DNA of 64,000 nucleotides, taken from the NCBI GenBank assembly GCA_965235115.1, contig OZ249436.1, positions 5,334,001 through 5,398,000 on the forward strand. Direction: 5' to 3'. Shown piece after piece: positions 1-30,239 of the stretch. A program made the position numbers and the translations under genes. Every line of letters begins with the position of its first letter. Position 1 is the stretch's first letter. The DNA is from Laetmonice hystrix (lineage: Eukaryota). The notes under the pieces are model-generated. The model saw only the letters and a list, made by a program, of their open reading frames with translations. It was not told the origin of the DNA and ran no database searches.

Positions 1-2
1 AT

Positions 3-2411
3 GTATTCTCCTTCCCTTTTTCGGAAACTTGCATCTTGACGCTTTTTGTTAATGTATTCCTGGTCAGCATGTTTATTTGCTAGATTGAGCCTACGTTGCT
101 TCTTGGACTGTCTTTCAGTCTCTAGGAATTGGCTATCTGATCTTCTCTTTCTCATATATTGTCTCATGTATTCTTTTCTGTCACGTGTTTCAAGTTCAGT
201 CTTTTGATTATTTCTTTGAGCATGGTCTGCTGGGGGCAAGTCTTCCATAGAGCTGCCAACACTGTTTACAACTGTTAAGGCAACAAGTCGACAACGTGTA
301 ACACTTTTCTTCATGTTTTTTAGCAGTTTTTCGATAACCTCACTGACTTGGTCTACACTTTTGCACACAACAAGCATGGCTTTCCCAAGATGTGGTTCTT
401 TTACGTTGTACGGACTGGGAGTAAATACAACCCATGAGTCATGTTTTGTCTTCAAGGCAGTAAGGAAGCAGTTTTCTGTGGATATAATCAGGCTGTTTGA
501 AACAGAAAAGGCCTTTTGAACCTCACTGCAAAGATTAGTGCTTTTTTGCCTTCGAGTTTTCATACCACCGCTCAAAACAATGTCAACAGACTGTATTTTT
601 TGCACAACAGAGGATCTGTCAGTTTGTTCATGCAGTTTAACCACTGCTTTCTCGATATTGTTTGTGTCAACCTTTACCTGTGATTTGCTACAAAGTCGAG
701 CCCCCTCTAGAAGTATATAGTTAACATCAGAAGGATGATATTGTTCACAGTTTGTTAGATACATGAGACTTGTGAGCGCATTACTCAGTGACAATCTTTG
801 TTTATTGTACTGTGAAAAGCAATCATCGGCTTGACTTATGTTACCATAGACAACATCTTTATAGATGTCAGTGTCACAGGATTTATTTGAAATCATTCCA
901 TGGCTTTGCAGTGGTTCAGACAGATGGGGTATTTTATTGGTTGACTGTTCATCTTGCTGATCATGGACTGTTAATTCTTTGTCTGTTCTATGCGTGTCAG
1001 TAGGTTCAGTTAAAATTGAAAATCGGTTGGAACATTGAATTCCATGAGAGTTCTTACAGATGGGATCTGATAATTGAACATTTTGCACTGGCTGTACAAC
1101 AGGCACATCACTTCTTTCCACAAACCTTTTAGTTCTCACACCAGAAATCATAGACAGGTTCCCATCATCATGTTTTATCTGTACTGGTTGCATTTCGTAT
1201 CTGACAGTACATGGATCATTTGTAGTACTACACACAAATTTCAGTAGCTGGTCTTGTAATTCTGTCAAGGTGGTGAAACACATAAATATGGCAGTTCCAT
1301 TGCAAGTTTGCTGACCTTGTATATCTCTTGAATGAGAGTCAAAGAGGCAGAATTTTCCTTTACAATTCAGGAATACACTGATGGCTTCAAGACCTATGAT
1401 AATGAGACCTGCATTGTGTCGATCAAACGTGTCTTTTACAGCTTCAGCAAGTGATACATTGTCATCATCAATGCTGACACAGGTACCCAGTGAGAGGTCA
1501 CTTTCGTTCATATCACACACAAACTGACTGCTGCCACTTTCTAAATGACGGGAAAGATCATTGAACGACAGATAATCATCTGGTACATGAACCCTTTGTT
1601 CTCTTATTTTGTTCCGAACTTTTTCATATACAGTAGAACCTTCAATTAGAACTCTATCAACGTCAGCTGTTGAGACATTTCTCATATTCTGAAGCCTTTC
1701 AATGGCTACTACGGCAGCACCTACACAAAATCTACCTCTGACATTGTCTGGAAATTTGACATTCCCCTGGTGCATACTGCCTGGAACAACACATGTTTCA
1801 AGATCAATATCTGAAGTTTTACCATGAGCAGAACAGCAGTCACTTGATGGGGTTTTGGAACTTGTATTACTTGTAGTCCTTTTCACATCTTGTACAATGT
1901 TAATGTCCTCGACAGCCAGTTTGGGTTGTCTATTTGTCGTTTGCTGCTCTGGTACATTTGTAGATTGCATGACGTTAGGTTTGGTGGATGTGCTGTTGGT
2001 CTGTTTCCCATGTTCACCTTTATAGTGTTGATCTGGTACACTGTCCTGGACTTGTAAACTAGTGCTCGTTTCATCTGTAACAGTAGCACTACGTATGGTC
2101 GCTAGAGTGGTACTTGGCACGTTTGATTTCATACTGTCATTTTGCCCGTTTGGTATCATTTTGTCATTTTGCACATTTTTTGGTACAATAGCACAAGTAC
2201 CAAGGTATTCATTTTTTTGAACCAGCTGGTATCCTACTGGTTGGTATTCTGCTGGTACGGGGGGATCTGTTGTACCAGGTCCAGGTTTTTTTGTACGGAG
2301 GGGCTGGACAGCCTCCGTGAGGTCAGAGACCTCCGATCCAGGGACAGGTTTTGTTGAACGGAGGGCCTGATCAACCTCCGTGAGGTCAGAGACCTCCGTG
2401 CAGCCCTTCCC
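3..2411 (-). CDS. Large coding exon (803 codons, open to the window edge) of a probable Helitron/Helentron-type polyprotein N-terminus: herpes tegument-like (peptidase C76-like) cysteine protease domain, degenerate second copy, charged R/K/E-rich segment
   Basis: Manual minus-strand translation finds no stop from 2411 to 3. It is preceded by a polypyrimidine tract and acceptor (TCCTTTTTCTCTTTGCAG, AG at 2413-2412); first in-frame ATG at 2159. Motifs VVPGSMHQGNVKFPDNVRGRFCVGAAVVAI, DVDRVLIEGSTVY and FCLFDSHSRDIQGQQTCNGTAIFMCF match the herpes-tegument-like DUB pattern. It ends in RKEYMRQYMRKRR...REGEY. Rep/helicase domains are not in the window. Confidence 0.8.
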
Positions 2412-4082
2412 CTGCAAAGAGAAAAAGGATGTTTGTTAATACCAAACATAATACCAAACAATTACCAATTTTTGTACTAGATTGCTGTAATTACCCCGAG
2501 TTCTAGACGGTATCAATCTCCAGGACATTTAGTGAGCCTGAATAATGTACCCCACAAGGCGCCATTCTGTAATTTGGTCAAGTATAAATCAATTCAGTTC
2601 ACTTCTAAAATCCGGATGGCTACACATCAGCTACTCTTATAATCATGTATGATAATTCTGAGAGGAAAAAAAGTATGGCATACACTCTCAAAAATACATT
2701 ATTAATAGTCTACTACATGAAGATTTTTAATATCTGCAACAAAAGAAACAAACAAAATGTCAGGGCTTCTACCAGTGGTTTTGAATGGAAGGTAGGACTG
2801 GACCGCAGGGGCCCTTTTGCAGTTTGGAGGGGGGGGGGAGGACGTTTGGCACTGTCCAAAATTTGGGGTTTTTTTACCGTAAAAGACCATGTATAGAACG
2901 CTATCATGGATAGGATGCAACTGGTTTTTGTGGTGCAAGACCCATGGAGTAAAAATTCCAGGCGTACTAATGCCATCGGTGAAGCCCGGTACAGCAGTAG
3001 ACGTAGTTCATGCTCCCAGATTGACAAACCCAAGAGCCGTGGTGACACAAGTCAGTAGGCTGCCAAATAGTCCGGTGGAATGACTTTTCCCTTTTGTAAC
3101 GCTATGGTGTGGGAGTGACACTGCCGTGGGGATTCTTACCCGTGATGTCACAGCAGTTCCCCGACTTGAGCCGCAGTGGCTATAGACGTGGATGCTTCAG
3201 CCGGCTGTAGTCCTGGCGGTAGTTAGTTAGAATGTGATTGCACATTACAGCAAGTTTCACAAACCCAAGAAACGTCCTCACCTTTAATGGTCTATTTAGT
3301 AATTCCAGTTTAATGCCTTTATTATATCTGGGCTTCTTTGTTTTATAATTGTATGTGTATTAATAATTTTCAAGTACTACCGTACTTACCGCGAGACATC
3401 TCTCAGTGCAAAGACACTGCACTTATATTCATTTTTGGCTGATGACATACCCCAAAACAACGCGATTTTGTAGAATTTTTTAGATTCAATGGGACATCAG
3501 GGACAAAGCAGACAGTACAAAACTGAAACTATAATTTACCGTAAAAAACTTTTTTCCCACAAATGTTAATTAAAGTAGCCTTTTTAGCCTTGGTAAGGAA
3601 GTAGGCTATGCGCTGATACAAATGGGCTTAGCCTTGGGCCTATCACTAGGGCTCTCAGACAGAATATGAAACACTATAGATTGGACTGGGAACCAGTTTA
3701 GTGAGTGGATTTTAGGATGTAAAGGTAGGCTATGCATTACTAGCAATCAGATCTGGGACAAATTTTGCATTTCTAAGGGTGTTCGCGGGATGCGGGATGG
3801 GCAAATTTGTTTGGCAGTAAAAAAATGTGTTCCTAACATTCTTTTATGGTAATCTGGATTCAGAGACAAGAACCACATTGAGGGGAAGAACACTGGATGC
3901 TTTAAGAAAAACATCCCAGTTATAAATGTACATGTGTACATAAATTCTAGTCCTGGGCCCAGCACCAGTGGCTATCTATGTGGCTTCAGGTGGCTGTAGT
4001 CCTAGGGGCAGTTCCTTACAATCACAATGTGTGTAGGGGGGAGGGTCCATTGTCCTGCTCGACCACCAAAGCTCCTTTTTTA

Positions 4083-4180
4083 GGGGAGTGGCGGTGGCCT
4101 AGTGGGCATGGATGTCGACACCTTATGCTATGCGAATGGGTGCAGTAATCTTAGGGCCTGGGTTCGATGCCTGTAGAGGA
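4083..4180 (+). mobile_element. tRNA-derived SINE-like head / tRNA-like relic
   Basis: Pol III A-box-like TGGCCTAGTGG and B-box-like GGTTCGATGCC, followed by a T-rich tract. No clean cloverleaf. Confidence 0.45.
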
Positions 4181-4452
4181 CTATACAACTTTTCTCTTTA
4201 GGGACATTGTCAAAGTAATTGGGTTACCCCTGATGCCCGTGCATTTCAAAAGAAAAATACAGGCATGTTTCACAAACCCAAGAAACGGCCTTACCTCTTA
4301 TAGTATACAATGTATTTCGTAATTCCAGTTTGTAACAACATTTTTCAGAAATATGCATTTAAATCACAAACTAATGCCTTTATTGAATATATCTGGGCTT
4401 CTTTGTATTATTGTATTTCCAAGTACTACTTACCATGAGACATCTCTCAGTG

Positions 4453-5003
4453 CATCTTGAGTTGTCAAGGAGCATCACGCATTCTGCCTTATGAATATTA
4501 ATACTATAATATAATAATAGGACCTGGCATGCATCGTCGTCATAGACTCACCACCCACAGTAAACGGTCCTCACCGAAGGGTTACTTCTCACAAAAATTC
4601 CTGATAGCCTTGCCCAGTTCACTGATTTATAAACAGATGTGTCCCTCCCTAACAATGCAGTTTGTAACACTCTGACTTGATATGTTTTAACAGGTGAAAT
4701 TCCAAAGTTTAGTTCCCCTGATTTCAGCATCGTCGCGCTGGCATCCAAACATTCACTGGCATGCTCCCGGCTCCCTGTCGCTGGCTGTCGGTCTCTGCCT
4801 GTGACGATGTTCCTATTCGCTAACCAGAAATGCACGCTAATTTTTATGAATGCACCTCAGGCAGTGCTGTAATCTGATTGGTTGTTACAAGTACTAAACT
4901 AGGTGGAAAACAGATGGCGCTGAGAAGTACACGTTTCTGAGAATAGGCAGGCATTCGGGAGGCGGGGAATCAGTGGGAGCGGTTCAACCCCGACCGTAGG
5001 ATG
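4453..5003. mobile_element. Unclassified ~550-bp insertion with target-site duplication
   Basis: Flanked by direct repeat CTCTCAGTG(CA) at 4444 and 5004, with short inverted ends CATC(T/C)T. The paralogous site near 3400 is uninterrupted. Confidence 0.5.
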
Positions 5004-7528
5004 CTCTCAGTGCAAAGACCCTGCACTTTTGTCCATTTTCGGCTGATGAGATGTTCCATCTGTCCATGGATTTTTGCTTCGACTTGGGGATTGGATGCAC
5101 ATATTTAACCCATTAAGGACGGGTGATGCCTTGAGGCATTCCCGGGCGGGGGCCGGATGATGCCCTGAGGCATTCCCGGGCGGGGGCCGGATGATGCCTT
5201 GAGGCCTCATTTGACTTACGTCAGAGCCCATTGTGTATAGAGCGACAGGGCAGCGCTGTGACGTAACGTCACAATTGAGTGCTAGCTGCGCTGGACCTAG
5301 ACCAACTCTCGACTCAATTCCCTACTTTTGTCTAAAACATGGATCATTTTTCTGGATATGACAGTGATTGGAAGCATGGAAGGCAATGCGTTATCACATG
5401 TGGCCGCCCAGAATGGCCCGTCCTTACGGCACATTCACGCATTTGTTACGTCGTCACTAGTGCACGTCTCGGCCACAAGGGGCCCGAGTAAAAAATGTGT
5501 CCTTGACAGGGTTTTACAATAATCTGAATTCAGAGACAAGAATTAAAAGCAACAAACTAAACAGCTCTTTTTAGGGCCCATACGAGTCAAACTGATAATG
5601 CTGTTTCCCTTAATACAACATGATGTCATTTTACCACATCACCAGTACAATAGAGTATGAATGAAATGACTACTTTATTACAGACTTGACATATATGGGT
5701 AACATTACATATTACATAATTATGCTTGTCCATAGGTATAATGGGGGAGGGGGGAGAAGAAAAAAAAAAGCTACTAGATTTAGGACAAGTAGCCAGTAAG
5801 TAAATAGAGCTACTAAATTATACGGCACTTTACTAGTATCATAATGGAGATAGAGAATCTTGTACCAGTGTCTCCATATTGTTGAGGTAAACTTAAAATC
5901 ATTCTTCTCTATGTTGACTAGTTCTGGTACAACTGTGTTCTCTGAATTCTCAAGCCTAATAACTGCTTGGCAATTAACAAATGACTAGCACTGTGAGATC
6001 TGGGTAGGCAGAGCAACAGTCACATAATATCGTTATAAGCTACTGTTAGCTTCCTGAGTTCCATAGTTCTACCATAATTGGGCGGTGTAGAGAAAAAAGG
6101 TAGGACATGTGGTGGTAAAACAAAACACTAATGTTTCACCTTTGGCATTCCTCAGTAATCAGGACAAATCAATAATCAGTAATCGATCAAAGTTGCAAAT
6201 TCATTAGAAAGTATTTAAAAAATACACTTTCAAAAGACAGACTAATGCCTTTATTGAAAACAGTAAACCTCGCATACAACAGATTCAATTGGACCAGCAC
6301 GTTTTGTCCGTTATATGCGAAATCTGTTATGTGTGTAAACTGGACAAAATCGGCTACGGACGTTCCCCATCTTCTACGACAGCTTCAGCTCAAAAACGCA
6401 GGAAACGTGAACGAGATGCCAGTAGAGCTCAACGACACCCGCCCGGTCATGTTCGCCCCCGGGATGTAGGCCCCTACCCCCGGTCATGCCTTCATGCCCG
6501 GCCCTCGCCGCTCTGCTGGAGAGGTGCCCGGCAAGGGACACATTACTCGTTAGGCCTACCTATGAGGTGGCTCTCATTTTGTTGGGAACTTAGACTAGTG
6601 ACTACAATAGTTGATCTAGGGTTGTTGGTACACTCCTCTAACTCAGTAGACTGTTCTAGTCAAGTTGATGGCTTTTTTCCCACCACGGGCGGCAGGGCGG
6701 GCGGTTGACTGAGTCGAGTGCATGTCTATCACAGAGGCAAGGCGACCGGGAGGGCACAGTGTCAATTTGTCAACAAGCTGTGTGCGTCACATGACACCAT
6801 GGAATTCCCCTGCCCATTCCCAGTTCAAATGGCGTCTTAATGCGCAAGAACGGATTAACGGTGCATGGCTGACGAATTCATGTAAATACGTCCAGATTAT
6901 CGTTTATTTCTCAGCTAAAAGGCAGGTATACCTATGATAGCGTTTCTGCTTGATGTTGAAAGAGTTTGGGGGGAAATACAGGAAATTTGTCAACATTGTT
7001 TGTACGTATAGTCGTTTAAACTTTAACGCGACGACATCGAGGGTTTCTGATTAGTGGCAGCCATATTAACAGGATTTGAATGTACATGATCTTTTATGGT
7101 AAATGATATCATTATTAACAGGAGTTAACCATGCATGGTCTTTTACGGTAAATCAGTGATGAGAAAAATGTATGTGCAAGGACAGGACATATATATACAG
7201 GACAGGACTTCTGGTGAAACAAATAAAAACCCACCTATTTGGTTGGAAGTTTCATGTCTGATAATTAAAATAAATTCCTGATAAATATCACTCTGACCTG
7301 TGTACCACTGCTTTAAATGGTTATTTACTCTGATACATTTAAATAAAACCATAATATTCAATATTGTATACTATTTACCTCTGGGAGTCTCCGTGCCGCC
7401 CTTTCCTTTGCAGCTCGCTGGGATTTCCTCTGTCTTGGCATGTCTAAAACATGAACACATACAGCACAGCATAACTTTATAGTAATAAAGTAAAACCCAA
7501 CTTCGACTTCACTTAAAACTATGATATG

Positions 7529-7656
7529 GGCCCGGTTCACAAACAAAGTCAAGTCAATTTTAATTGACTTGAAGTCTATTATACTCAAATCTGATTGGTT
7601 AAAATGGATTTCAAGTTACATGTAATTAAAATTGACTTGACTTTGTGAACCGGGCC
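7529..7656. mobile_element. Palindromic PIF/Harbinger-type MITE
   Basis: TIRs GGCCCGGTTCACAAA...TTTGTGAACCGGGCC, long internal inverted repeat, 3-bp TSD ATG (7526-7528 and 7657-7659). Confidence 0.75.
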
Positions 7657-7784
7657 ATGATGTCCACGTACTTCAAGATTCAGAAACTGCCGGGTTCTAG
7701 GGTTCTACCTAGAAAAAAATGTCAGCATGGGGACAACCATCGGAAATGGCCAAGGAATATGACGCAGCGCCATGGTGGGGCGCC

Positions 7785-8339
7785 CAGGGGCGGATCTAGG
7801 GTCCAGGCCTCGAATTAGAAGTTAAAAGGGGCACAGCAAAAACGTTGAGGGCCTTGTTTAAAGGAGGGCACCACGGCATTTTTAACAAGTTTAGAAGGGC
7901 ACCACGGCAAATTTACTTCTCCAAAACCAAACCTCGCATGTCTGGCTTAACAGTAAAACAAGGAATCTTCACACTTTAGGTTAGTTGTGTTGGTGATCAC
8001 TAGGGGATCGATGTCAGGGATGATTCGGGGATGGCTGATGGGCACATCACGGCAAGGGAGAAGGGCACCACGGCACTGGACTGCCGTCAATGGGGCAAAA
8101 AATAGGAGGGCACCACGGTAAATGGAAGGGGCACGACGGCAATTGCCGTCGATGCCGTCGTGTAATTCGAGGCCTGAGGGTCTATATTCAGGGGGGGTCC
8201 TAGGGGGGTCCAGCATAAAAAGGGCAAATCGAGGGGGGTCCGTTGTAAAAACAAAAGGCATTTTGGTTATAAAAAATTAAATTTGGCAAATTTGAGGGGG
8301 GGTCCGGACGTCGCCGACACCCCCCTGGATCCGCCACTG
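7785..8339. mobile_element. hAT-like MITE (CAG(G/T)GGCGGATC TIRs, 6-bp TSD) carrying a nested MITE
   Basis: CAGGGGCGGATCTAGG...CCTGGATCCGCCACTG, TSD GGCGCC on both sides. After removing the nested insert it matches 10543-10730 in reverse orientation. Confidence 0.8.
7804..8176. mobile_element. Nested MITE (TIR CAGGCCTCGAATTA, 6-bp TSD AGGGTC)
   Basis: Perfect 14-bp TIRs, TSD at 7798-7803 and 8177-8182, internal repeated AGGGCACCACGGCA motifs. Confidence 0.8.
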
Positions 8340-10542
8340 GGCGCCCTAGAAAATTGGTAAGGAGGGCCCCTAGAAAATTTTTGGAAAAACGGATGAAATT
8401 TGGTGCAATCTGAGCGAAAAACACACTTCCATTCTAAGGTGAGGGCAGTGAAAAGCAGGAATCCTTCTAAGCTTTACAGCTAATATCATTATCAGTGATT
8501 GCGCCCGGGTGTATAGAGTATACAGTGTATACGAAACAACCGTTCGCCTGTTAATCTCAGGCTTGCAAAATTTGCAGGTAAACGGATTTTCGTTCTCGGC
8601 CTTTCCATGATCGTTCGCGTCTTAAAATCAGGCCTGACCATGTTTAGTAAGACGGGGGACACATAAATCTTGGAGCGCTTGCGAGCGGGGTCGAATAATT
8701 CAAAACGCTCGTCTAGTTAACGTATGGTCAGCGTCTAAAGTTAACCATTTTGTAGCAATTTATTAGTCATCGCAGAATGGCAGACCACGTCTGAAGAATT
8801 GGTTAAAGAAACACTCTTCTCCTGCTTATTGAGTTATCAGATGTTAACTTGATAGTACTAGAGCCCGTCTATACCATATTCATATTTTTAGGCTGCCCTT
8901 GTAATTAATGATTATTAATCAAAAATGGGACTTAGTAGTTGATAGTCTTTTCGCCATCTTGCAAAAGTCTAGACTGAAGGCGTAGACTAGCTAAACTTAC
9001 CGCGAGTTTGGCCCACAACAAGGAGTATTCCAGGACTTTGTGCGGCAGTGGGGTTGTAACAACCGAAACTGGATTAAGAATTTGGATCAACAAAGGAGCT
9101 TTCGTGCTTTCCCCTCTAAAATAAAACCTGTAGGCTGTATAATTCTGAAGAGGTGGGTGCACAACAATACATGCGTCGAGGTAGGCCTAAGGCTAAGCTA
9201 AGGCTAAGCTAAAGTAAAGTGGATTTGTTCCAACAGCGATCCACCCGCATAGTGTGAATGTCTCGATTTTTTTCTGTGACTAACTCAACTTGTCAGTCTT
9301 AAACTTCTACCTAACTGATTAGGCCTAGACTCCGTTTCTGCTGTGACTAGAGTCGAGAGTGCAGTCTAGTGACTAGTCTAGGCCCCGTAGATCTAATCTC
9401 ATTCTAGTATTTCTACTGTCCAGTCACCAGTGCAGTGGCAGTGATTAGTAAATTGGCTGAAGGAGGGGGCAAACGGCCCAATATACCACCAATTTACACT
9501 TTGAAAATTCTGAGGGGTGGGGGAGTATTTACCAAAGACCGTTTTCCAAGACAACCCGTGGGCGTGACCGGCCTGTAGCAGGCCTACTGTAGCAAGCCGC
9601 CCCCGCCAACTCCGTCGCCAAGCTGCACGCCGGGCTCAGGCACTGAGTGAGCCGAGGACAGACACCCATACTAAGGCCATTGGGGGGGGGGGGGATGATC
9701 CAGGATTTTGCATAAAAAAATAATTTTGCAAGGGGGGGGGGGGCTTGACCTAGCTAGGTGCGCCGTAGTCTGACATAGACACACTGCAAAATGATAACCC
9801 TCAGCCTGGACTGGCTGGAGTCAGCCGGGGGGGGGGGGGGGCTTAGCCTTAGGCAGGGCCTACTACTAGTAGCCTACTGCTACTGCTGCCCCCCCCTCAG
9901 AAATTTCTAGATACGGCCCTACATACATGTAGGGCCTACCTCCATAGCTTATATTATCTTGGAAAACGGTTAGGGCATATTTTCGACCTACTTCCTTAGG
10001 CTAATGCTATGGGTATGGCTATGTCTATGGATGATGGATGTAGCCGGGGGAGGGGGCGGGGGTTCCGAGGGTTCTGACGAACCCCTCTCACTTTTGTGGG
10101 CCACTATTAAAATAAATACACTATAGAACTAGATATCATTGCCGAAACTTATTTAACAGGTCCCTATTTAAACTATCAGGTCGCTACATGAGCAGACCGC
10201 CCACTTGTCAACACTTGTTTAACGAGGGCCGAGGCATATCCAGGGCTGAGTGAGTCCCTTCGTGACGTAGTCAAAGATGTAGCCAAGTAATTGCTATTAT
10301 TGCCGCAAGAGGGCGCGCGGTGCGCCAATGGCGGCGACTATGAATCTGCATTAAAGTTCTTTTTGACAATATAATATAAACTGTTTGATGTTAAAAAAAT
10401 AACATGGGTTGTAGAATTATGCCTTCTTCAATTCTAAATATGATTTAGCTCGAGAAAAGCATTCCTTTAAATTTATATTTTTCGACTTCGAGCACAAAAG
10501 CTCCGAAATCTGATAGAAATCTATAATTAGAAAGATACTAAG

Positions 10543-10730
10543 CATAGGCGGATCCAGGGGGGGTGTCGGCGACGTCCCGCCCCCCCCCCCCCCCCCCTCA
10601 AATTTAATTTTTTATAACCAAAATGCCTTATTGTTTTTACAAGGGACCCCCCCCCTCGATTTGCCCTTTTTATGCTGGACCTCCCTCCGCCTCGGACCCC
10701 CCCTGAATGTAGACCCTAGATCCGCCCCTG
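10543..10730. mobile_element. hAT-like MITE, same family as 7785-8339, opposite orientation
   Basis: CATAGGCGGATCCAGG...CCTAGATCCGCCCCTG, 5-bp TSD CTAAG. Internal sequence is the reverse complement of 8177-8339. Confidence 0.8.
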
Positions 10731-13689
10731 CTAAGCGACTCCAATTCGAAATTGATTAAGTTTTAATGTGCAGACAGCATTTTTGTCAAAGCATGCGATT
10801 TTACTTCGAGTCGTCTCGGTCGCATTGTTTTGGTTCTTACAATTATATCGCTCGACCTAGATGGCACTGCGAATGCGAACGCCCTAGTTCTCATTCGGAA
10901 AACCTCGGCCAAACTTCCGGTCGCTTCGCTGTAGTTGTGCTCGGACACCCCTCGACGCATTGATATACATGGATTCCATGTATCGCCCCAGTGACACAAG
11001 ACTGGCACAGGTAGTGAGATGCCGGCAAAAATTGAGTCCCTTATATATAGTGGGTAGAGCCTCTATTAATGGTGTTAGTAAAATCATATAGACCAGATAT
11101 CATTATAAAGTTGTTGTTACGTTAACAACTTTGACCAAACATAGATTAATCGAATAAAATGACCCGGCAACTTCGCGACAGCTCTGCAGGGCCGCACGGG
11201 TGGCTCCCGGTGGGGATAGCTAGGGCAGCCCGGCGGTCCGCGGGCTCCGAGACGCCCTGGCTCATAATATTGAACCACTTTGAGTATGGATTTGCCGTAT
11301 TATTTACCTTGATTTGACTGGATTCAACACAAGGGTGTTCAACATAACGCTTAACATGAGAGTCAAGTCGTCAAAATGAACCGTGACAATCGGCGTAAAA
11401 TGAAAGAAGTCAAAGTTCAAACCGTCACAGAAAAACGGGTGTTACGATTCAACGGTGGCGTGTAACGGTTTGACAGGCTACCTTGATTCGATCCTCTTAT
11501 CACACGGATCATACATGCTAAATAAGGAATAGTCCACGTTTTCATGGCTTAATGTCATTGTCAAGAAAGGCTACAATCCGTGACAAATTCGGTTTCAGTT
11601 TTTTGCCAACTATTAACGAAGAAAGCCGTCTATTGACAGCACCACAGCCCAGACACTGGCCGTTGTTTGACGCTACGACAATAGTGCGCTGACCCCATCT
11701 GACCCAATATGGCGACCTCCGATTGGTATCCGAGTCTCTCTACATCGTAAAGGGCTCGGTGTTCCGAATGCCTAACGTTAGTTCTATGATAAATTCAAGA
11801 TGGCTGTTGCCTCTCCACCGCCAGCGCAGGGGCCCAATGCTAAACTTTCAGCGTTCAATTTCATCGTCCCTTCAAGTCTAACAGCTACAAATTGGACTCC
11901 AGAACGTCTACTACACACTTACTAAAATTAGATCACATTAGATTCATTGAAAGTAATGGTGGCACCACATAAATCAAGCATAAATACAGCGAGTAACACC
12001 GTCAATACCGACCTGGTACGATGAACGCAGTCAATTGCCTCGTGCGGTCACTTCCGGGAACACTATGGTGCCACCTGACGGGAGTTCGCTGGAGACGCTG
12101 CCGCTGCTTGAAGAGACATCTAGCGAGGGAGCAGGGAACTGGCCGTTTCTGGCTCTAAACGCGCGTGCTTCTGGTGCAAATGAACTTTAGAGAGTGAAGT
12201 GATTTTTCTTTCTTTGTGTCCTCACAAGGCCGGAACCCCCCTTAGAACCCCCTCCCCTCGAATAAAAATTGTCAGATTCTTTCCTCAAAGAGCCACGTAG
12301 GGTAGGCCTACAGTAGGCCTATGAATGATCTAAAACGACTCTACCATAGGCCTACGACTGCTGAACGACTGGTCTGAGTTGATGATTGCAACCCTGCCCC
12401 CCTTCCCCCGGACAAAAAATCCTGGTAAAGGCCTATAGTCCTTTGCAGCAAGTTAGGGACTGTCTCGGGTAGCTCATTTGATCCTCAACAAATTCAGGGT
12501 TACCATTCTTAAATTTCAATAAAAGCTTCTAACATTATAAAATAGTGTATGATCATAATAATAACCCAGTTCAAAAGTTTTATCATGCAAGATTTTATAA
12601 TATTAGAAAGAAAACACGATGACAACCCGGACTTTTAGTCAAACACGTGGCCCGTCTCATGGCCGCCGACGTCACAGCAGAGTCAGACTTCGCAGTGCTT
12701 GCAGCAGACTGCTTGTACAAAAACTAGAAATCGGCTATGATTCAAACTTACAGAGAAGCTTTACATTAATTACAATCATCTCAGCCAAAGGGCCAGAAAG
12801 TTTGAGTTAAATCGCACGCTTCCTTATTGAGAAAACATCAAGTTTACAAGAGACTTTTTGTGACAAGTTTTGACAGCCGTGACCCGGATGATAAACATGA
12901 TGAGGTCGACATCCTGGCAGTTAACATTATGCCAAACAGGAAGCTCTTGCAAGGTCAAAATATCCCAACATTAGAAAACAATAATACAGTGGAAAACAGA
13001 AAAAGATTCCCTTTAAAAAGACATAAAATATTATGTTGTAAAAAAATTTGGACCTTAACTTATCATTGAAAATTAGCAATGACGTTGTTCTTCTGTGACG
13101 TCTGACAATGCATCTGTGACGTTTTGACCTATAAACGTACAAAAACGGCAAATTTCGATCTCGCAGTGTGCTGCTGCTACAACTGGCAAAGTTGAAGCTA
13201 TAAAGATGACTGTAGTACCATTCGATCGGGAATTTAATTTTGAAACCAGCATGCAAGTTAGGATGTGTCAAGTTGAATACGATGACCGCAGCGATACATT
13301 TACTGGTGCAGAGTCAAGGAAAATGGAAAATTTCGGCAAGTTTCTGTAGCTCTTCACACACTGCTAGCTTGTAGGATTTAAAGATTAGACAGATGTCATG
13401 TTGTGAATTACGTAGATCTAAGTCTAAGGGCTAGAATGATGTTTATTTGAATACTGTAGACCCAATAGTTGCTGAGATATTAGCACCGGCACAAAAAATG
13501 TCAGGGCAACATGATGTTTCAGTCCCATACTTGGTGACACGCGCTATAGCCTAGGCATTCCTTGTAGGCCTATTTAAACCTGACGATTTATAATAGACCT
13601 AGAGGGGATCTATAGCATTATTTTTATCATAGGCCTACTGTCAGGTATTCTGTTAAGCTAGTAGTGTTTAATTAGGCCTAGGGCCTATA

Positions 13690-15660
13690 ATAACTATGAC
13701 CCTAACTTCCACTATTACAAGTTATAGCCTTGAGACAATATTGATGACATCATTATGCCGTCATCGGTCACGTGAGCTGAAAAATAATGCCAAATAAAAG
13801 ATCATGACTTCCTATTAGCGTTTAATAGTAGGCTACAGGCGCGGATCCAGGATTTTTGCAGCGGCGGGGGGGTGGGGGGGGGGGGGGGGGGAGTCCGAAG
13901 GATGCGAGCCGCTGGGGGAGGGGGCAATACTCTGGCCAGTCTGGGGCCCTTCCCCGATAACATACTTATAGCAAAAACCTAAGTTGGTCCTGAGCAGGGG
14001 GGCCTACCCCCTGGAACCCCCCCCCCCCGATCCGTGCCTAGCTGTAGTAGGCCTATCACCCTAACCTCAGCCATTTACAAGTTATAGCCCTGAGAAAATA
14101 TTGATAACATCGTTATGACGTCATAGGTCACGTGACCTGAAAGATAATGGTGCCAAAATGAAAGAGCACATATGACTTCATATTAGCGTTTAATAGTATG
14201 GCTCTAACGTCAACCATTTACAAGTTATAGCCCTGAGAAAATATGGATGACATCATTATGACGTCATAGGTCACGTGATGTAAAAAATAATAGTACGAAA
14301 TGAAAGAGCATATATGACTTCCTATTAGTGTTTAATAGTAACTATGGCTCTAACTTGAACCATTTACAAGTTATAGCTCTGAGCAAATAAGAATGACATT
14401 ATGACCTCATAGGTCACGTGACCTGAAAAATAATGGTGTCAAATGAAAGCACATAGACCTCTATATATGACTTCCTATTAGTGTTTAATAGTAACTATGG
14501 CTCTAACTTCAACAATTTTCAAGTCATAACCCTGGGAAAATATTGATGACATCGTTATGACATCACAGGTCACGTGACCTAAAAAAAAGGTGCCAGATGA
14601 AAGAGCATGATTTCCTATTCATGTCTAATAGTAACTATGGTTCTAACTTCAACCATTTACAAGTTATATCCCTGAGAAAATATCGATGACATCATAATGA
14701 CGTCATAGGTCACGTGACCTAAAATATAATGGTGCCAAATGAAAGAGCATGTTTAATAGTAACTATGGCTCTAACTTCAACCATTTACAAGTGATAGCCT
14801 TGAGAAAATATGAATAACATCATTATGACGTCATAGGTCACGTGACCTGAAAAATAATGGTGCCAAATGAAAGAGCAGATATGACTTCCTATTAGCGTTT
14901 AATAGTAATTATGGCTCTAACGTGAACTGTTTACAAGTTATAGCCCTGAGAAAATATGGATGACATCATTATGACGTCATAGGTCACGTGATGTAAAAAA
15001 ATAATGGTACGAAATGAAAGAGCATATATGACTTCCTATTAGTGTTTAATAGTAACTATGGCTCTAACTTGAACCATTTACAAGTTATAGCTCTGAGCAA
15101 ATAAGGATGACATTATGACGTCATAGGTCACGTGCCCTGAAAAATAATAGTGTCAAATGAAAGAGCATATATATGACTTCCTATTAGTGTTTAATAGTAA
15201 CTATGGCTCTAACTTCAACAATTTTCAAGTCATAACCCTGAGAAAATATTGATAACATCGTTATGACGTCATAGGTCACGTGACCTGAAAAATAACGGTG
15301 CCAAATGAAAGAGCATATATGACTTCCTATTCGTCTTCAATAGTAACTCGGACTCTAACTTCAACCATTTACAAGTGATAGCCCTGAGCAAATATGGATA
15401 ACATCATTATGACGTCATAGGTCACGTGACCTGAAAAATAATGGTGCCAAATGAAAGAGCATATATGACTTCCTATTAGTGTTTAATAGTAACTTTGGGT
15501 CTAACTTCAACCATTTACAAGTTATAGCCCTGAGAAAATATTAATGACATCGTTATGACGTCATAGGTCACGTGACCTGAAAAAAATGGTGCCAAATGAA
15601 AGAGCATAGCTTCCTATTCATGTTCAATACTAACTATGGCCCTATCTGGTACTGTTTAGA
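13690..15660. repeat. ~146-bp tandem repeat (about 12 copies), internal to the HINE/Helentron 5' region
   Basis: TCACGTGA-like cores recur at about 14128, 14271, 14414, 14570, 14710, 14838, 14984, 15128, 15276, 15422 and 15568, with a detached copy near 13770. The consensus unit carries adjacent palindromes TATGACGTCATA and GGTCACGTGACC. Confidence 0.9.
13836..14040. mobile_element. Degenerate hAT-like MITE inserted in the 146-bp repeat tract
   Basis: CAGGCGCGGATC...GATCCGTGCCTA imperfect TIRs, G/C runs like the other MITEs. TSD unclear. Confidence 0.5.
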
Positions 15661-16132
15661 AGTTGTAGCCATAAATAGCTAAACTGGACACTTTTGAAAA
15701 CTTCAAGGTCACGTGATTCAGCCAATATAGGTCAAATCGCTTATCCTTGGATGTTTCTATTAAAACACTTGTTAGAGAGTGTTCCTGCCCAATATTGTCA
15801 AATTTTACCCATAAATGAAGAAGAAGTAGCGATTTAACCGATTTGTGACCTAGGACCCAGTTCTCCCTAAGGTCAAAGGTCAAAGGTCAAATGAAGGGTC
15901 AGTTTTAGGCTAGACCCTTGCCTGATCATAACGCCATGATAGATCTTGGAAATTCCCAATATGAACTTTAAAAATGGCCCTAAATATCCCAAACACGTTT
16001 GACGTCATGACGTTATGACGTGACGTCACGTGACCTCATGATTAATTGTGTGACCTGACTTTGTCATGGTCAAGATATGTGCCAAGTTTGATTGAGATAT
16101 CTTGAAAAATGACTGAGATAGAGGTACTGTTT

Positions 16133-16170
16133 ACGACTACTACTACTACTACTACTACTACTACAACTAC
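16133..16170. repeat. (ACT)n microsatellite of the HINE 5' region; homologous tracts at ~29945-29970 and ~34856-34899
   Basis: Read directly. A microsatellite just inside the 5' sub-TIR is typical of DINE-1/HINE elements. Confidence 0.9.
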
Positions 16171-16246
16171 GCAAAAAATAATAATAATAGGGAAGACGAA
16201 ACCAGACAATTTCTAAATCCCATCCCCTGGATAGGGGATGGGATAA

Positions 16247-16307
16247 TAATAGGGAAGACGAAACCGTACAATCTGAAGATCCCATCCCCCTGTAGGGGAT
16301 GGGATAA
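16247..16307 (-). mobile_element. 5' terminal 61 bp of an outer HINE, identical to 34969-35029
   Basis: TAATAGGGAAGACGAAACCGTACAATCTGAAGATCCCATCCCCCTGTAGGGGATGGGATAA, containing hairpin ATCCCATCCCC/GGGGATGGGAT and abutting satellite TTACACATCTAGAG. Confidence 0.85.
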
Positions 16308-19300
16308 TTACACATCTAGAGATGCTGCAGGCAGAAAACACCAGGGTGCAGCTCAGCTGACTGCACTGCCGCCTTCTGGCCAGCGGTGGAATCACCACGT
16401 ACACCTGGCCGGGCTGGCAGGCACCTGTGGGTCTGAGGCGAGAGACAGGTTAAAGCAATGATAAGCGCAAAATGGCTACATTTTTGATACGTCAATTTGA
16501 AACTACGCCCCCCAAAATTATGATTCTTCGGCCACATGTAGAACTGTCAAACGTATAGGTCTCGTACGTTCGCTACAGATATATGGTTGTGATGTGTACA
16601 CTTCCCATTTGAGTATCTTCTCCAGATTTTAACATTAGAATGTCGTCGCCTGTACCTTTCATTTCCAGCTACCTCACTGTAGTGTTTGCATGACTGCTAT
16701 AGGCCAGCCGGTAAAATGTTGGGACTTCTCACTCTACTGGTTGGCCTCCCACAATGCTTGGCCCCACAGTGTAATGTTTGGCCTCACTGTACACTTTGGC
16801 CTCAATGTAGTGTTAGCTTGGGTGGTAGGCCACCCACTATACCTTGTAGCGATTCCTCCCTCTACTGTTTGGCCTTCCGGTACCGTTTGCTTGTATACAA
16901 GTGTAGCCAGTAGTATAGGGACGCCTCATGTTTCATGTTTCCATGCCTTTATTGTCCAGAAGGCAGGCCATACGTTTCGTTTATCATCTACTCCAATCTA
17001 ATCTGTGTGCCCTACAGACCATCGGTAAGCGTCCGACAACGTTGTCAGGTCGTCGCAATGACTGTTTGCCGTAAAGGTTTTGTTAACAATGGCAAATGAC
17101 GTTGTACGCCTTTTCTATATCAGATTTCCTATCCCCAAGTAACAAACAAACAAAGATTACACATCTAGAGATGCTGCAGGCAGAAAACACCAGGGTGCAG
17201 CTCAGCTGACTGCACTGCCGCCTTCCGGCCAGTGGTGAAATCACCACGTACACCTGTACGGGCTGGCAGGCACCTGTTGGTCTGAGGCGAGAGACAGGTT
17301 AAAGCAATGATAAGCGCAAAATGGCTACATTTTTGATACGTCAAATTGAAACTACGCGCCCCAAAATCATGATTCTTAGGCCAGATGTAGAACTGTCAAA
17401 CGTATAGGTCTCGTACGTTCGCTACAGATATATGGTTGTGATGTGTACACTTCCCATTTGAGTACCTTCTCCAGATTTTAACATTAGAATGTCCTCGCCT
17501 GTACCTTTCATTTCCAGCTACCTCACTGTAGTGTTTGCATGGCTGCTATAGGCCAGCCGGTAAAATGTTGGGACTTCTCACTCTACTGGTTGGCCTCCCA
17601 CAATGCTTGGCCCCACAGTGTAATGTTTGGCCTCACTGTACTCTTTGGCCTCACTGTAGTGTTCGCCTGGGTGCTAGGCCACCCAGTATACCTTGTAGCG
17701 ATTCCTCCCTCTACTGTTTGGCCTTCCTGTACCGTTTGCTTGTATACAAGAGTAGCCAGTAGTATAGGGACGCCTCATGTTTCATGTTTCCATGCCTTTA
17801 TTGTCCAGGAGGCAGGCCATACGTTTCGTTTATCATCTACTCCAATCTAATCTGTGTGCCCTACAGACCATCGGTAAGCGTCCGACAACGTTGTCAGGTC
17901 GTCGCAATGACTGTTTGGCGTAAAGGTTTTGTTAACAATGGCAAATGACGTTGTACGCCTTTTCTCTATCATTAAGGATACCGATCCTATCCCCAAGTAA
18001 CAAACAAACAAAGATTACACATCTAGAGATGCTGCAGGCAGAAAACACCAGGGTGCAGCTCAGCTGACTGCACTGCCGCCTTCTGGCCAGCGGTGGAATC
18101 ACCACGTACACCTGGCCGGGCTGGCAGGCACCTGTGGGTCTGAGGCGAGAGACAGGTTAAAGCAATGATAAGCGCAAAATGGCTACATTTTTGATACGTC
18201 AATTTGAAACTACGCCCCCCAAAATTATGATTCTTCGGCCACATGTAGAACTGTCAAACGTATAGGTCTCGTACGTTCGCTACAGATATATGGTTGTGAT
18301 GTGTACACTTCCCATTTGAGTATCTTCTCCAGATTTTAACATTAGAATGTCGTCGCCTGTACCTTTCATTTCCAGCTACCTCACTGTAGTGTTTGCATGA
18401 CTGCTATAGGCCAGCCGGTAAAATGTTGGGACTTCTCACTCTACTGGTTGGCCTCCCACAATGCTTGGCCCCACAGTGTAATGTTTGGCCTCACTGTACA
18501 CTTTGGCCTCACTGTAGTGTTAGCTTGGGTGCTAGGCCACCCACTATACCTTGTAGCGATTCCTCCCTCTACTGTTTGGCCTTCCGGTACCGTTTGCTTG
18601 TATACAAGTGTAGCCAGTAGTATAGGGACGCCTCATGTTTCATGTTTCCATGCCTTTATTACCCAGGAGGCAGGCCATACGTTTCGGTTATCATCTACTC
18701 CAATCTAATCTGTGTCCCCTACAGACCATCGGTAAGCGTCCGACAACGTTGTCAGGTCGTCCCAATGACTGTTTGCCGTAAAGGTTTTGTTAACAATGGC
18801 AAATGACGTTGTACGCCTTTTCTATATCAGATTTCCTATCCCCAAGTAACAAACAAACAAAGATTACACATCTAGAGATGCTGCAGGCAGAAAACACCAG
18901 GGTGCAGCTCAGCTGACTGCACTGCCGCCTTCCGGCCAGTGGTGGAATCACCACGTACACCTGTACGGGCTGGCAGGCACCTGTGGGTCTGAGGCGAGAG
19001 ACAGGTTAAAGCAATGATAAGCGCAAAATGGCTACATTTTTGATACGTCAAATTGAAACTACGCGCCCCAAAATCATGATTCTTAGGCCAGATGTAGAAC
19101 TGTCAAACGTATAGGTCTCGTACGTTCGCTACAGATATATGGTTGTGATGTGTACACTTCCCATTTGAGTACCTTCTCCAGATTTTAACATTAGAATGTC
19201 CTCGCCTGTACCTTTCATTTCCAGCTACCTCACTGTAGTGTTTGCATGGCTGCTATAGGCCAGCCGGTAAAATGTTGGGACTTCTCACTCTACTGGTTGG

Positions 19301-22300
19301 CCTCCCACAATGCTTGGCCCCACAGTGTAATGTTTGGCCTCACTGTACTCTTTGGCCTCACTGTAGTGTTCGCCTGGGTGCTAGGCCACCCAGTATACCT
19401 TGTAGCGATTCCTCCCTCTACTGTTTGGCCTTCCTGTACCGTTTGCTTGTATACAAGAGTAGCCAGTAGTATAGGGACGCCTCATGTTTCATGTTTCCAT
19501 GCTTTTATTGTCCAGGAGGCAGGCCATACGTTTCGTTTATCATCTTCTCCAATCTAATCTGTGTGCCCTACAGACCATCGGTAAGCGTCCGACAACGTTG
19601 TCAGGTCGTCGCAATGACTGTTTGCCGTAAAGGTTTTGTTAACAATGGCAAATGACGTTGTACGCCTTTTCTCTATCATTGGGGATACCGATCCTATCCC
19701 CAAGTAACAAACAAACAAAGATTACACATCTAGAGATGCTGCAGGCAGAAAACACCAGGGTGCAGCTCAGCTGACTGCACTGCCGCCTTCTGGCCAGCGG
19801 TGGAATCACCACGTACACCTGGCCGGGCTGGCAGGCACCTGTGGGTCTGAGGCGAGAGACAGGTTAAAGCAATGATAAGCGCAAAATGGCTACATTTTTG
19901 ATACGTCAATTTGAAACTACGCCCCCCAAAATTATGATTCTTCGGCCACATGTAGAACTGTCAAACGTATAGGTCTCGTACGTTCGCTACAGATATATGG
20001 TTGTGATGTGTACACTTCCCATTTGAGTATCTTCTCCAGATTTTAACATTAGAATGTCGTCGCCTGTACCTTTCATTTCTAGCTACCTCACTGTAGTGTT
20101 TGCATGACTGCTATAGGCCAGCCGGTAAAATGTTGGGACTTCTCACTCTACTGGTTGGCTTCCCACAATGCTTGGCCCCACAGTGTAATGTTTGGCCTCA
20201 CTGTACACTTTGGCCTCACTGTAGTGGTAGCTTGGGTGCTAGGCCACCCAGTATACCTTGTAGCGATTCCTCCCTCTACTGTTTGGCCTTCCTGTACCGT
20301 TTGCTTGTATACAAGAGTAGCCAGTAGTATAGGGACGCCTCATGTTTCATGTTTCCATGCCTTTATTGTCCAGGAGGCAGGCCATACGTTTCGTTTATCA
20401 TCTACTCCAATCTAATCTGTGTGCCCTACAGACCATCGGTAAGCGTCCGACAACGTTGTCAGGTCGTACCAATGACTGTTTGCCGTAAATGTTTTGTTAA
20501 CAATGGCAAATGACGTTGTACGCCTTTTCTATATCAGATATCCTATCCCCTAGTAACAAACAAACAAAGATGACACATCTAGAGATGATGCAGGCAGAAA
20601 ACACCAGGGTGCAGCTCAGATGACTGCACTGCCGCCTTCCGGCCAGCGGTGGAATCACCACGTACACCTGGCCGGGCTGGCAGGCACCTGTGGTAAAAGC
20701 CGGTAAAATGTTGGGACTTCTCACTCTACTGGTTGGCCTCCCACAATGCTTGGCCCCACAGTGTAATGTTTGGCCTCACTGTACACTTTGGCCTCACTGT
20801 AGTGTTAGCTTGGGTGGTAGGCCACCCAGTATACCTTGTAGCGATTCCTCCCTCTACTGTTTGGCCTTCCGGTACCGTTTGCTTGTATACAAGTGTAGCC
20901 AGTAGTATAGGGACGCCTCATGTTTCATGTTTCCATGCCTTTATTGTCCAGGAGGCAGGCCATACGTTTCGGTTATCATCTACTCCAATCTAATCTGTGT
21001 CCCCTACAGACCATCAGTAAGCGTCCGACAACGTTGTCAGGTCGTCGCAATGACTGTTTGCCGTAAAGGTTTTGTTAACAGTGGCAAATGACGTTGTACG
21101 CCTTTTCTATATCAGATATCCTATCCCCAAGTAACAAACAAACAAAGATTACACATCTAGAGATGCTGCAGGCAGAAAACACCAGGGTGCAGCTCAGCTG
21201 ACTGCACTGCCGCCTTCCGGCCAGCGGTGGAATCACCACGTACACCTGTCCGGGCTGGCAGGCACCTGTGGGTCTGAGGCGAGAGACAGGTTAAAGCAAT
21301 GATAAGCGCAAAATGGCTACATTTTTGATACGTCAAATTGAAACTACGCGCTCCAAAATCATGATTCTTAGGCCAGATGTAGAACTGTCAAACGTATAGG
21401 TCTCGTACGTTCGCTACAGATATATGGTTGTGATGTGTACCCTTCCCATTGGAGTACCTTCTCCAGATTTTAACATTAGAATGTCCTCGCCTGTACCTTT
21501 CATTTCCAGCTACCTCACTGTAGTGTTTGCATGGCTGCTATAGGCCAGCCGGTAAAATGTTGGGACTTCTCACTCTACTGGTTGGCCTCCCACAATGCTT
21601 GGCCCCACAGTGTAATGTTTGGCCTCACTGTACACTTTGGCCTCACTGTAGTGTTAGCTTGGGTGCTAGGCCACCCAGTATACCTTGTAGCGATTCCTCC
21701 CTCTACTGTTTGGCCTTCCTGTACCGTTTGCTTGTATACAAGTGTAGCCAGTAGTATAGGGACGCCTCATGTTTTATGTTTCCATGCCTTTATTGTCCAG
21801 GAGGCAGGCCATACGTTTCGTTTTTCATCTACTCCAATCTAATCTGTGTCCCCTACAGACCATCGGTAAGCGTCCGACAACGTTGTCAGGTCGTCGCAAT
21901 GACTGTTTGCCGTAAATGTTTTGTTAACAATGGCAAATGACGTTGTACGCCTTTTCTCTATCATTGGGGATACCGATCCTATCCCCAAGTAACAAACAAA
22001 CAAAGATTACACATCTAGAGATGCTGCAGGCAGAAAACACCAGGGTGCAGCTCAGCTGACTGCACTGCCGCCTTCTGGCCAGCGGTGGAATCACCACGTA
22101 CACCTGGCCGGGCTGGCAGGCACCTGTGGGTCTGAGGCGAGAGACAGGTTAAAGCAATGATAAGCGCAAAATGGCTACATTTTTGATACGTCAATTTGAA
22201 ACTACGCCCCCCAAAATTATGATTCTTCGGCCACATGTAGAACTGTCAAACGTATAGGTCTCGTACGTTCGCTACAGATATATGGTTGTGATGTGTACAC

Positions 22301-28300: not shown

Positions 28301-28553
28301 TAGCCAGTAGTATAGGGACGCCTCATGTTTCATGTTTCCATGCCTTTATTGTCCAGGAGGCAGGCCATACGTTTCGGTTATCATCTACTCCAATCTAATC
28401 TGTGTCCCCTACAGACCATCGGTAAGCGTCCGACAACGTTGTCAGGTCGTCCCAATGACTGTTTGCCGTAAAGGTTTTGTTAACAATGGCAAATGACGTT
28501 GTACGCCTTTTCTATATCAGATATCCTATCCCCAAGTAACAAACAAACAAAGA
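16308..28553. repeat. ~850-bp macrosatellite, block 1 (15 monomers of 849/858/578 bp; 1707-bp dimer and 3992-bp higher-order repeat)
   Basis: Equivalent positions at 17001, 17850, 18708, 19557, 20415, 20993, 21842, 22700, 23549, 24407, 24985, 25834, 26692, 27541, 28398. Confidence 0.97.
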
Positions 28554-29243
28554 CTAGATACGTTGTGGAGTACCACAATGGATCCCATCCCCGGGGTGTC
28601 CCATGTAACATGTTCTGAATAGGGATAACTATGGTACTATCTTGCACCCGTGACGACTTATGAGCCTTAGAAGATGGAAGTTACGTCATTATGACCTTAT
28701 GCTACGTCATAAATATTGATCTCAATGGACTTCCTATTCATGTTCAAAAATAACTATAGGTGTATCTAGCACCGTTTACTAGTTACAGGCTTCTACCAAT
28801 CCTTAGAAGGGCTCAGTTACGTCATAAGGATGTAATAGATCACACAACAGAATAAATCTTGGTGTCAATTGAAAGAACATAATGAGGACTTCCTGTTTAT
28901 AAATATTCAATACTAACTATGGGTCTAACTCCTACCATTTACAAGTTAAAACCCTGAGAAAATATCGATGACATCGTTATGTCATGGGTCACGTGACCTA
29001 AGAAATAATGATGCCAAACGAAAGAGTATACATGACTTCCTATTCGTGTTCAATAGTAACTATGGGTCTAACTTCAAGCATTAACAAGTTATATCCCTTA
29101 GAAAATATCGATGACATCTTTACGACGTCACAGGTGACGTGACCTTAAGGATGACGATACCAAGTGATAGCAAGTTATAGCCCTCACAAAATATAGGTTC
29201 ACTGGCTGTGGTAATCAGTACTAGTTCAATCCAGTATTAGCTT

Positions 29244-29322
29244 GTCAGATGGCGTAGCACTGGCGATAAGTGTCTTGACTCACATGCTATGGGTCGCCGG
29301 TTCAATCCCAGGCCGAGTCACC
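29244..29322 (+). pseudogene. tRNA-like relic / SINE head inside the outer HINE
   Basis: A-box-like TGGCGTAGCACTGG, B-box GGTTCAATCCC, then a T run. The 3' part GTTCAATCCCAGGCCGAGTCAC is duplicated at ~29356. Confidence 0.5.
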
Positions 29323-30239
29323 TATTTTTTTGGACTTCTACCGGAAGGGTCCCGCGTTCAATCCCAGGCCGAGTCACGTTTCTTTTTGTTTTTGTTTTTT
29401 CCCTCTAATTTTTAAAAATGGTCACGTGACCTGAAAAAAAAAATATCATAAAAGAGCATAATGACTTCTTATCTGTGTTTAATAGTAACCAATGCCAAAT
29501 CTGGCACCGTTTACAAGTTCTAGAAAATTGACAATTTTTCGAAATTTCAAAGTCACGTGATTCAGCGAATATTAGTCAAATCGCTTATCTTTTGATGATT
29601 TGAGACAAGCTCATGTTAGAGAGTCCTTCTGCCTAATATTGTCGAATTTCACCAAAAAATGAAGAAGGAGTAGCGATTTAAGAGATTTGTGACTGAGGAC
29701 CCAGTTCTCCTAAAGTTCAAGGTCAAATGACAAATGAAGGGTCCATGTTAGACTAGACCATTGCCTGATTAAAACACCATGATGGGGTTTGGAAATTTCC
29801 AATATGAACGTCATGACGTGACGTCATACGTCACGTCACGTGATATGTCACAACTCATTGTCTGACGAGTCCTTGTCATGGTCAAGATGTGTGCCAAATT
29901 TGATTGAGATATCTTGAAAACTGACTGAGATGGACGCCACTGTTTACTACTACTACTACTACTACTACGACGCAAAGAATAACTAGCCCGACTGATTGCT
30001 TAAGCAATACAGGGATCCCTTCCCCTGACGAGGAACAATGAAGCAATAATAAAAATAATAATGATAACGAGGCAATAGGTGTTGCTAGGCAACACCAGAT
30101 CCCATTTCCCATTTATGTACATGACGTGCACCTAGCCATGACGTGTACAACTACGTGACGTGTACCTAGCCATGACGTGTACCTAGCCAAAACCAGACAT
30201 GGCGATTAGTATGGCTATAACAATGGCACAACAGGCATT

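Follow-up and report, generated by a model that had tools for sequence, protein, structure and literature searches.

The left end of a 64,000-nucleotide stretch of Laetmonice hystrix DNA (the window; C1:5334001-5398000, C1 being contig OZ249436.1 of a 627-Mb, 35-contig assembly) holds what is very probably part of an intact, recently mobile autonomous Helentron (HLE2), and this is the overall best explanation of the locus, the targeting behaviour discussed below included. More than half of the copies in its family lie in or beside the 5′ end of another copy. The evidence consists of the element boundaries, the empty sites that show no target duplication, the order of the protein domains and their catalytic motifs, near-identical copies elsewhere, and strong pile-ups of family insertions at two spots of resident 5′ ends and at one spot of a satellite. 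Window coordinates equal the C1 position minus 5,334,000, and zero or negative values stand for positions to the left of the window.

The Helentron spans 26,708 bp on the minus strand, from 16246 to -10461 (C1:5323539-5350246); positions 1..16246 lie in the window and a further 10,462 bases beyond its left edge. The 5′ terminus (16185..16246, minus strand) is formed by TT, the subterminal inverted repeat (subTIR) ATCCCATCCCC and the inverted repeat GGGGATGGGAT, which make a hairpin, followed by a (TTA)n tract. The unit ATCCCATCCCC-loop-GGGGATGGGAT-AA was found stacked twice, one ending at 16246 and the other at 16307. Both hairpins fold strongly (-14.1 and -14.3 kcal/mol, z of -5.5 and -4.3, 0 of 200 shuffles as good). 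The 3′ end at -10461 comprises the subTIR GGGGATGGGAT, a short stem-loop and CTAG, and the 11-bp subTIR is present at both ends. The original prediction, made from the window alone, took the left 16 kb for one giant Helentron with a 5′ terminus at 16246 and no 3′ terminus to its left. The terminus and its hairpin were found, a search for a 3′ terminus between 1 and 16217 gave none, and the 16 kb proved to be the 5′ part of one 26,708-bp element, which recurs over its full length on other contigs, between different neighbours. The leftward order it forecast was also recovered in full, namely Rep, PIF1, endonuclease, GGGGATGGGAT with hairpin and CTAG (-10461), the remainder of an outer HINE (to -11886) and satellite, with no 5′ end closer to the open reading frame.

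A minus-strand frame at 3-2435 is still open where the window ends on the left and reaches its stop codon at -6273 (C1:5327727), giving 2,902 codons in a single frame. Its main exon (in-window part 1..2411, minus strand; 2,894 codons in all) carries a protease-like domain pair in the window and, left of it, 17-residue repeats, DUF6570, Rep (HUH/Y2), PIF1 helicase and an EEP endonuclease. Profile searches placed DUF6570 (PF20209, E = 2.1e-20), Helitron_like_N (1.5e-35), PIF1 (4.6e-20) and Exo_endo_phos (1.3e-10) in this order, the last three being the hidden Markov models with which the continuing frame had been expected to match. Rep contains the rolling-circle replication motifs (motif 1, HUH and Y2: FFCTFS, EWQARGSPHIH and YILSYISK), as well as the Helentron-diagnostic F/Y-x-R before motif 2 and S between G and P (HFYRVEWQARGSPHIH). 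The PIF1 helicase follows with Walker A, Walker B and motifs III, V and VI, and an AP (apurinic/apyrimidinic)-like endonuclease with motifs TETWL, GDFN and SYHDA occupies the C-terminus of the same frame. The frame encodes a Helentron RepHel-EN protein and not a non-Helitron one, in line with the earlier claim that it belongs to the element. Homologues, among the matches listed, share the Helentron domain set. Domain set, motifs and termini together point to a Helentron (HLE2), that is, a member of a known group. A canonical Helitron (HLE1; 5′-TC start, no subTIRs, no endonuclease, L in motif 2) was ruled out by the TTATCCC start, the subTIRs, the endonuclease and the S; the CTAG end is the only feature common to both.

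We also observed two tandem herpes-tegument-like cysteine-protease domains (216-1838, minus strand), the first with Cys and D-S-H and the second apparently without. The call was made by alignment to relatives with precomputed PF04843.

Introns were predicted by sequence comparison, not from RNA, and donor scores came from generic frequencies. The predicted three-exon transcript would encode a RepHel-EN protein of ~2,915 residues. The pyrimidine tract and CAG acceptor at 2412|2411 are kept in a diverged subfamily, and acceptor position and phase are conserved in relatives at 68-73% identity. The acceptor read-through (FFSLQ, LFSLQ, FVLQ) stands at the N-terminus of four of the eight closest outside proteins, in the same position and phase. 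The predicted start exon (65 nt; 7379..7443, minus strand) reads AG|AC ATG ... MPRQRKSQRAAKERAARRLPE |GT in phase 0, with the ATG at 7441 opening MPRQRKSQR...; exon and splice signals are kept in 5/5 copies, with no indels between subfamilies and indels in the nearby flanks. The predicted intron between the start and main exons (4,967 bp; 2412..7378, minus strand) ends in TTTTTCTCTTTGCAG, and extra small exons are possible within it. The weakest part of the gene model is a putative promoter with a non-coding exon 1 (12013..12222, minus strand), a conserved block with a CAG|GTCGGT donor.

It is improbable, in our view, that the reading frame is instead a single exon translated from an internal ATG, with the upstream 14 kb as non-coding cargo. 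The open frame does have an in-frame Met as its residue 93, the corresponding exon start carries a Met in two relatives (P0003, P0004), and further conserved donor-like sites mean that the exon chain is not unique. Starts of the MP/MG+R/K type were found in 40 of 122 comparison proteins (e.g. MPRKGKRSQAQK in fish) and also at 6 of 258 upstream ATGs in the Helentron, so that the start peptide alone is a weak argument. What persuades is the combination at 7441, where the acceptor lies 2 nt upstream of the ATG, the peptide is basic like the N-termini of named Helentron proteins, and a phase-0 donor follows, with no indel between subfamilies; the shared place and phase of the 2411 acceptor in the relatives likewise speaks against a single exon. 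When 2301-16400 was searched by tblastn with the N-terminal 1,300 residues from 120 homologues, no match fell below E = 0.1, i.e. no upstream coding cargo. The original prediction of an intron-containing element thus stands as far as comparison goes, given the conserved acceptor, start exon and phase in copies and relatives. Its placement of a spliced reading frame 14 kb downstream holds for the distance from the 5′ end to the main exon, but the likely start codon at 7441 is only 8.8 kb away. Contigs of one sample, four runs compared with 1-14050, are uninformative on splicing: among the 15 of 193 joints listed, none matches the predicted introns.

Several other features were noted in this part of the element. 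Internally duplicated segments in 3139-5100 (3246-3410, 4258-4454, 5004-5052) bear strong donor-like sites, which the diverged subfamily also has and which may mark small or alternative exons; conserved sites of this kind were noted at 4551-3139. A ~170-bp repeat occurs in two inverted copies (85%; 8177-8335 and 10547-10717) within the predicted first intron.

Near-identical copies extend end to end on contigs C2 (26.5 kb, 96-99%) and C6 (25.7 kb, 99% over the 5′ region), and two copies of the diverged 21.2-kb subfamily were mapped end to end on C3 and C7. Between the C1 and C2 copies, 17 of 8,682 coding bases are different and the frame stays open. The C1, C2, C3 and C7 frames are open to the end, and that of C6 stops after 67 codons. 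Against the diverged subfamily, the 1,754 codons of the core reading frame show 56 silent changes and 24 replacements. A protein search yielded 89 matching stretches among the matches listed, many of them in open frames of 2,500-3,600 codons.

The autonomous element interrupts an outer HINE (HINE-A), of which the 5′ 61 bp (16247..16307, minus strand) are separated from the body by the big element. These 61 bp are assigned to the outer HINE because the C2, C3 and C6 copies have different neighbours there, which ruled out their being part of the big element. The HINE body (1,425 bp; C1:5322114-5323538) ends with CTAG at -11886, the whole HINE being 1.49 kb, and beyond it the satellite begins with TCTTTGTTTG on the minus strand. 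Within the window the ~855-bp satellite occupies 16308..47812 (right end approximate). Its monomers carry an ATCCYATCCCC motif followed by the A-rich tract that receives insertions. Compared with two reference monomers, they are 98-100% identical from 16327 to 42151 and 95.7% at 44711; self-BLAST gave 91-92% at 44.7-47.6 kb, the decay lying beyond ~44.7 kb. Left of the outer HINE (C1:5322114) the array resumes, again at 98-100%. The sharp, undiverged left end with decay on the right had been seen, and the resumption beyond the window anticipated, in the original prediction. With at least 24,693 monomers (~3.4% of the genome), this is a major satellite here.

Removal of the big element in silico restores the sequence of all 71 intact HINE-A 5′ ends, and removal of HINE-A restores the satellite monomer, in both cases with no duplication; the satellite insertion site in the window is either T^C or A^T, according to the terminal T that is counted as part of the element. 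On this reading, HINE-A entered the satellite and the autonomous element then entered HINE-A. The C6 and C7 copies likewise lie within a HINE-A nest in this satellite, with offsets that differ from the one here. The shared 11-bp subTIR and shared 5′ end suggest that the autonomous Helentron mobilises the HINEs. A second HINE-A (28554..35029, minus strand) is 98.8% identical to the first, occupies the same satellite position, and has another family member nested at the same TAA site. That nested member (29983-34968) is a 5-kb non-autonomous element with a variant subTIR (ATCCCTTCCCC) and internal duplications.

A 3′-end pattern search returned 2,111 family 3′ ends genome-wide (control, 5). Nesting was counted on the reverse strand, where matches are non-redundant (991 ends); the forward count (2,532) is redundant and was left out. 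On that strand, 362 of the 991 ends come after the (TAC)n tract in the 5′ block of another copy, i.e. are nested in the 5′ TAA tract, and another 181 abut a 5′ hairpin. The first 88 ends on C1 comprised 31 nested, 20 beside a 5′ hairpin, 4 in satellite and 33 elsewhere. Among 200 HINE-A 5′ pieces, 129 are preceded by another element's 5′ end and were invaded at one site, and 71 are intact; ~65% of one HINE subfamily is thus already invaded at one 10-bp site. HINE-A 3′ ends number 269, which leaves 69 outside the two exact 5′ patterns.

Insertions also gather at one spot of the satellite. In the tested orientation, 31 were found 8-25 nt from an ATCCCC motif, with peaks near 9 and 24 nt, while satellite control windows of similar size had 0 (A-rich, same strand) and 1 (T-rich, other strand). 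Direct inspection covered the flanks of 85 among the first 100 HINE-A ends, and a further 9 were assigned from their spacing, which left 6. At the satellite motif lay 14 of the 85 flanks, and one (L117) lay elsewhere in the satellite. The examined satellite insertions were therefore at the motif in 14/15 cases, or 11/12 after three duplicate pairs were collapsed (p ~4e-13 at 6% expected). The expected share of the motif window is 6-7%, from either AA sites or a matrix of 79 ordinary flanks, the 12-position matrix giving 6.4-7.0% of monomer weight; for this matrix, 19 of 98 fetched flanks had been dropped (satellite, nested and tandem cases, one duplicate, one likely chance match, and one in a HINE repeat).

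We propose that the transposase binds the element's terminal motif in resident copies and that the T-rich sites closest by then receive the newcomer, a reading that we hold somewhat more probable than its opposite. According to steps described for related elements (PMC13085455), Rep would nick the 5′ end, the helicase would peel off one strand, and a second nick after the 3′ stem-loop would free a circle to be joined into a T-rich target, with the endonuclease nicking at T-rich sequence (PMC4067079). From the literature on the group, the same enzyme would move HINEs through the shared ends. Transposase bound to a resident GGGGATGGGAT/ATCCCATCCCC motif would capture the nearest T-rich sites for the incoming element, either just outside the resident 5′ end or in the (TTA)3 tract ~50 nt inside, and the look-alike motif of the satellite would act as a weaker decoy. 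The broader claim of self-directed, motif-guided integration by a eukaryotic rolling-circle transposon, with resident 5′ ends as landing pads and a satellite of >3% of the genome as decoy, is more tentative, and we put it slightly short of an even chance.

A plain sequence preference could give a similar picture, if TT in (TTA)n or T-rich tracts is favoured and the 5′ block and the A-rich satellite tract are simply the best sites, the subTIR itself not being recognised. Of 79 ordinary sites, 72 have a terminal AA as drawn, equal to TT on the coding strand, most often as TAA (26), and a TT/T-rich preference has been described for Helentrons (PMC4067079). The single control insertion in a T-rich satellite stretch and L117 are compatible with it as well. 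The matrix built from those sites, however, assigns the motif window far less than the share of satellite insertions it received, and the A-rich control window on the same strand is empty. Moreover, the rare GA| junction was used in 18 of 31 hot-spot insertions versus 1 of 79 ordinary sites (Fisher p = 1.7e-11). We regard plain preference as rather unlikely, at about one chance in a few.

Still less likely, to our judgement, is an inflation of the counts, both through the movement or duplication of whole nests (composite transposition, 5′ read-in of the kind put forward for Fusarium, segmental duplication) and through head-to-tail junctions in rolling-circle concatemers. Duplicate flanks exist, both HINE-A of the locus sit at the same satellite offset, nine HINE-A 3′ ends lie at ~1,432-bp spacing on C1, and chimeric elements with two 5′ ends have been proposed in Fusarium (PMC5148889). 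Yet in 35 nests, paired by a nearest-neighbour heuristic, the distance that separates the HINE-A 3′ end from the closest invaded 5′ piece spans 3.0-71 kb and is mostly different, with one identical and one near-identical pair. Several different 3′ subfamilies occur at the same site, satellite offsets vary from 8 to 25 nt, and the big element has four different 5′ neighbours among its five copies. The tandem-junction pattern was also searched for in metagenome contigs, with 0 stretches found. The nine-end array (C1:70577250-70602667) repeats the HINE-A body without its 5′ 61 bp; two stacked HINE-A 5′ pieces lie 25 kb from it, apparently a self-nest expanded into a young tandem array.

Several observations weigh against an intact element that targets its own motif. 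A TCCCC-like word lies within 45 nt in only 2 of 79 ordinary flanks, so most primary insertions need no motif, and the satellite share of ~3.4% predicts roughly the 31 insertions seen, with no clear overall enrichment. The inside and outside hot spots are on opposite sides of the motif; in consequence, one fixed geometry fails for both. The counts are of junctions rather than events and include some segmental duplicates (L038=L039, L046=L047), ordinary target sites were profiled on one side only, and all data come from one assembly. As to the element itself, a 3′ stem-loop is present in the centroid fold, but the two 3′ stem-loops folded are no better than shuffles (z of -0.03 and -0.91). In the N-terminal part of the protein, replacement changes against the diverged subfamily exceed silent ones (94 versus 54 in 1,001 codons), and Pfam returned only a sub-threshold N_Asn_amidohyd match for the N-terminal 811 residues and nothing for residues 200-430.

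The element agrees with Helentrons/HLE2 and their HINE/DINE-1 partners (PMC4067079; PMC11417382) in having Rep-Pif1-EN in one frame, F-Y-R and S in Rep motif 2, DUF6570, subTIRs, a 5′ inverted repeat and a 3′ stem-loop, in T-flanked insertion without duplication, and in partners that share its ends. Named relatives of the protein, ~40-45% identical, come from fish, amphioxus, molluscs and echinoderms. At 26.7 kb it is unusually large: autonomous HLEs in Repbase average 9.7 kb, with 75% under 12.3 kb and a maximum of 39.9 kb for all HLEs (PMC11417382). Also unlike known Helentrons, its 5′ end lies ~18 kb from the Rep domain, beyond the default 10-kb window of HELIANO, its upstream DNA gave no protein match, OTU included, and over half of its family lies within or next to the 5′ end of another member. 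Cg_HINE of the Pacific oyster (PMC7492417) similarly has a 5′ subTIR, inverted repeat and microsatellite, central satellite-like tandem repeats, a 3′ subTIR with palindrome, and 11-12-bp subTIRs. Its autonomous partner was not assignable there, whereas here the partner shares identical subTIRs, and here the large satellite is the target and not cargo. FoHeli of Fusarium oxysporum (PMC5148889) also inserts at or near another copy's 5′ end and stacks short 5′ termini, but in single or few cases, as opposed to hundreds of junctions at base-precise positions here. The telomere-inserting Helitrons of Paramecium (PMC13085455) are likewise large, satellite-stuffed and placed in one orientation in a host repeat; they form a clade outside HLE1/HLE2 with telomeric repeats as the rule, whereas most primary insertions here are at ordinary TT sites. 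Genome-wide, site-precise self-targeting by Helentrons was not found in the literature covered, which excluded most subscription papers, Repbase reports and supplements, the last of which may hold longer Helentrons or nesting data.

The element type is well known; the self-directed insertion pattern of this family is worth testing. As to how Helentrons pick and open their targets, a role of the endonuclease has only been hypothesised, with a call for biochemistry (PMC4067079). An intact, recently copied autonomous element with two base-precise hot spots and built-in controls makes target choice directly testable. Stacked 5′ ends, like large clusters of Helentrons, would be accounted for by self-nesting, which would at the same time keep harm to host genes in check. 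For annotation practice, a 27-kb element with nested ends lies beyond default windows.

Nested DNA accounts for part of the Helentron's size, as with the ~1.1-kb repeat with TATAG...CTATA ends at 12433..13548, which is absent from the C2 and C6 copies and has 36 other near-full matches at 93-100%. A (TAG)n microsatellite of the 5′ subterminal block (16132..16170, minus strand) resembles DINE-1/HINE anatomy, and a 146-bp central tandem repeat in 11 copies (14061..15644, minus strand) is common to the HINEs. The 3′ region past the stop codon contains a 187-bp repeat and a (GA)n tract.

The ~855-bp satellite also builds an array, at least 90 kb long, close to the beginning of C1 (C1:373602-465081). 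At its right edge in the window, a decayed inverted monomer (48140-48560) lies between two 52-bp repeat arrays. Elsewhere, one HINE-A (L113; C3:7566024-7566109) is a few bases from an apparent tRNA gene, identified by eye. Further right in the window, the plus strand at 54400-60239 carries what we take, by eye and from its motifs, to be an intron-containing glutathione S-transferase-like gene, within whose region a 49-bp minisatellite of 72 copies occupies 55334-58880.

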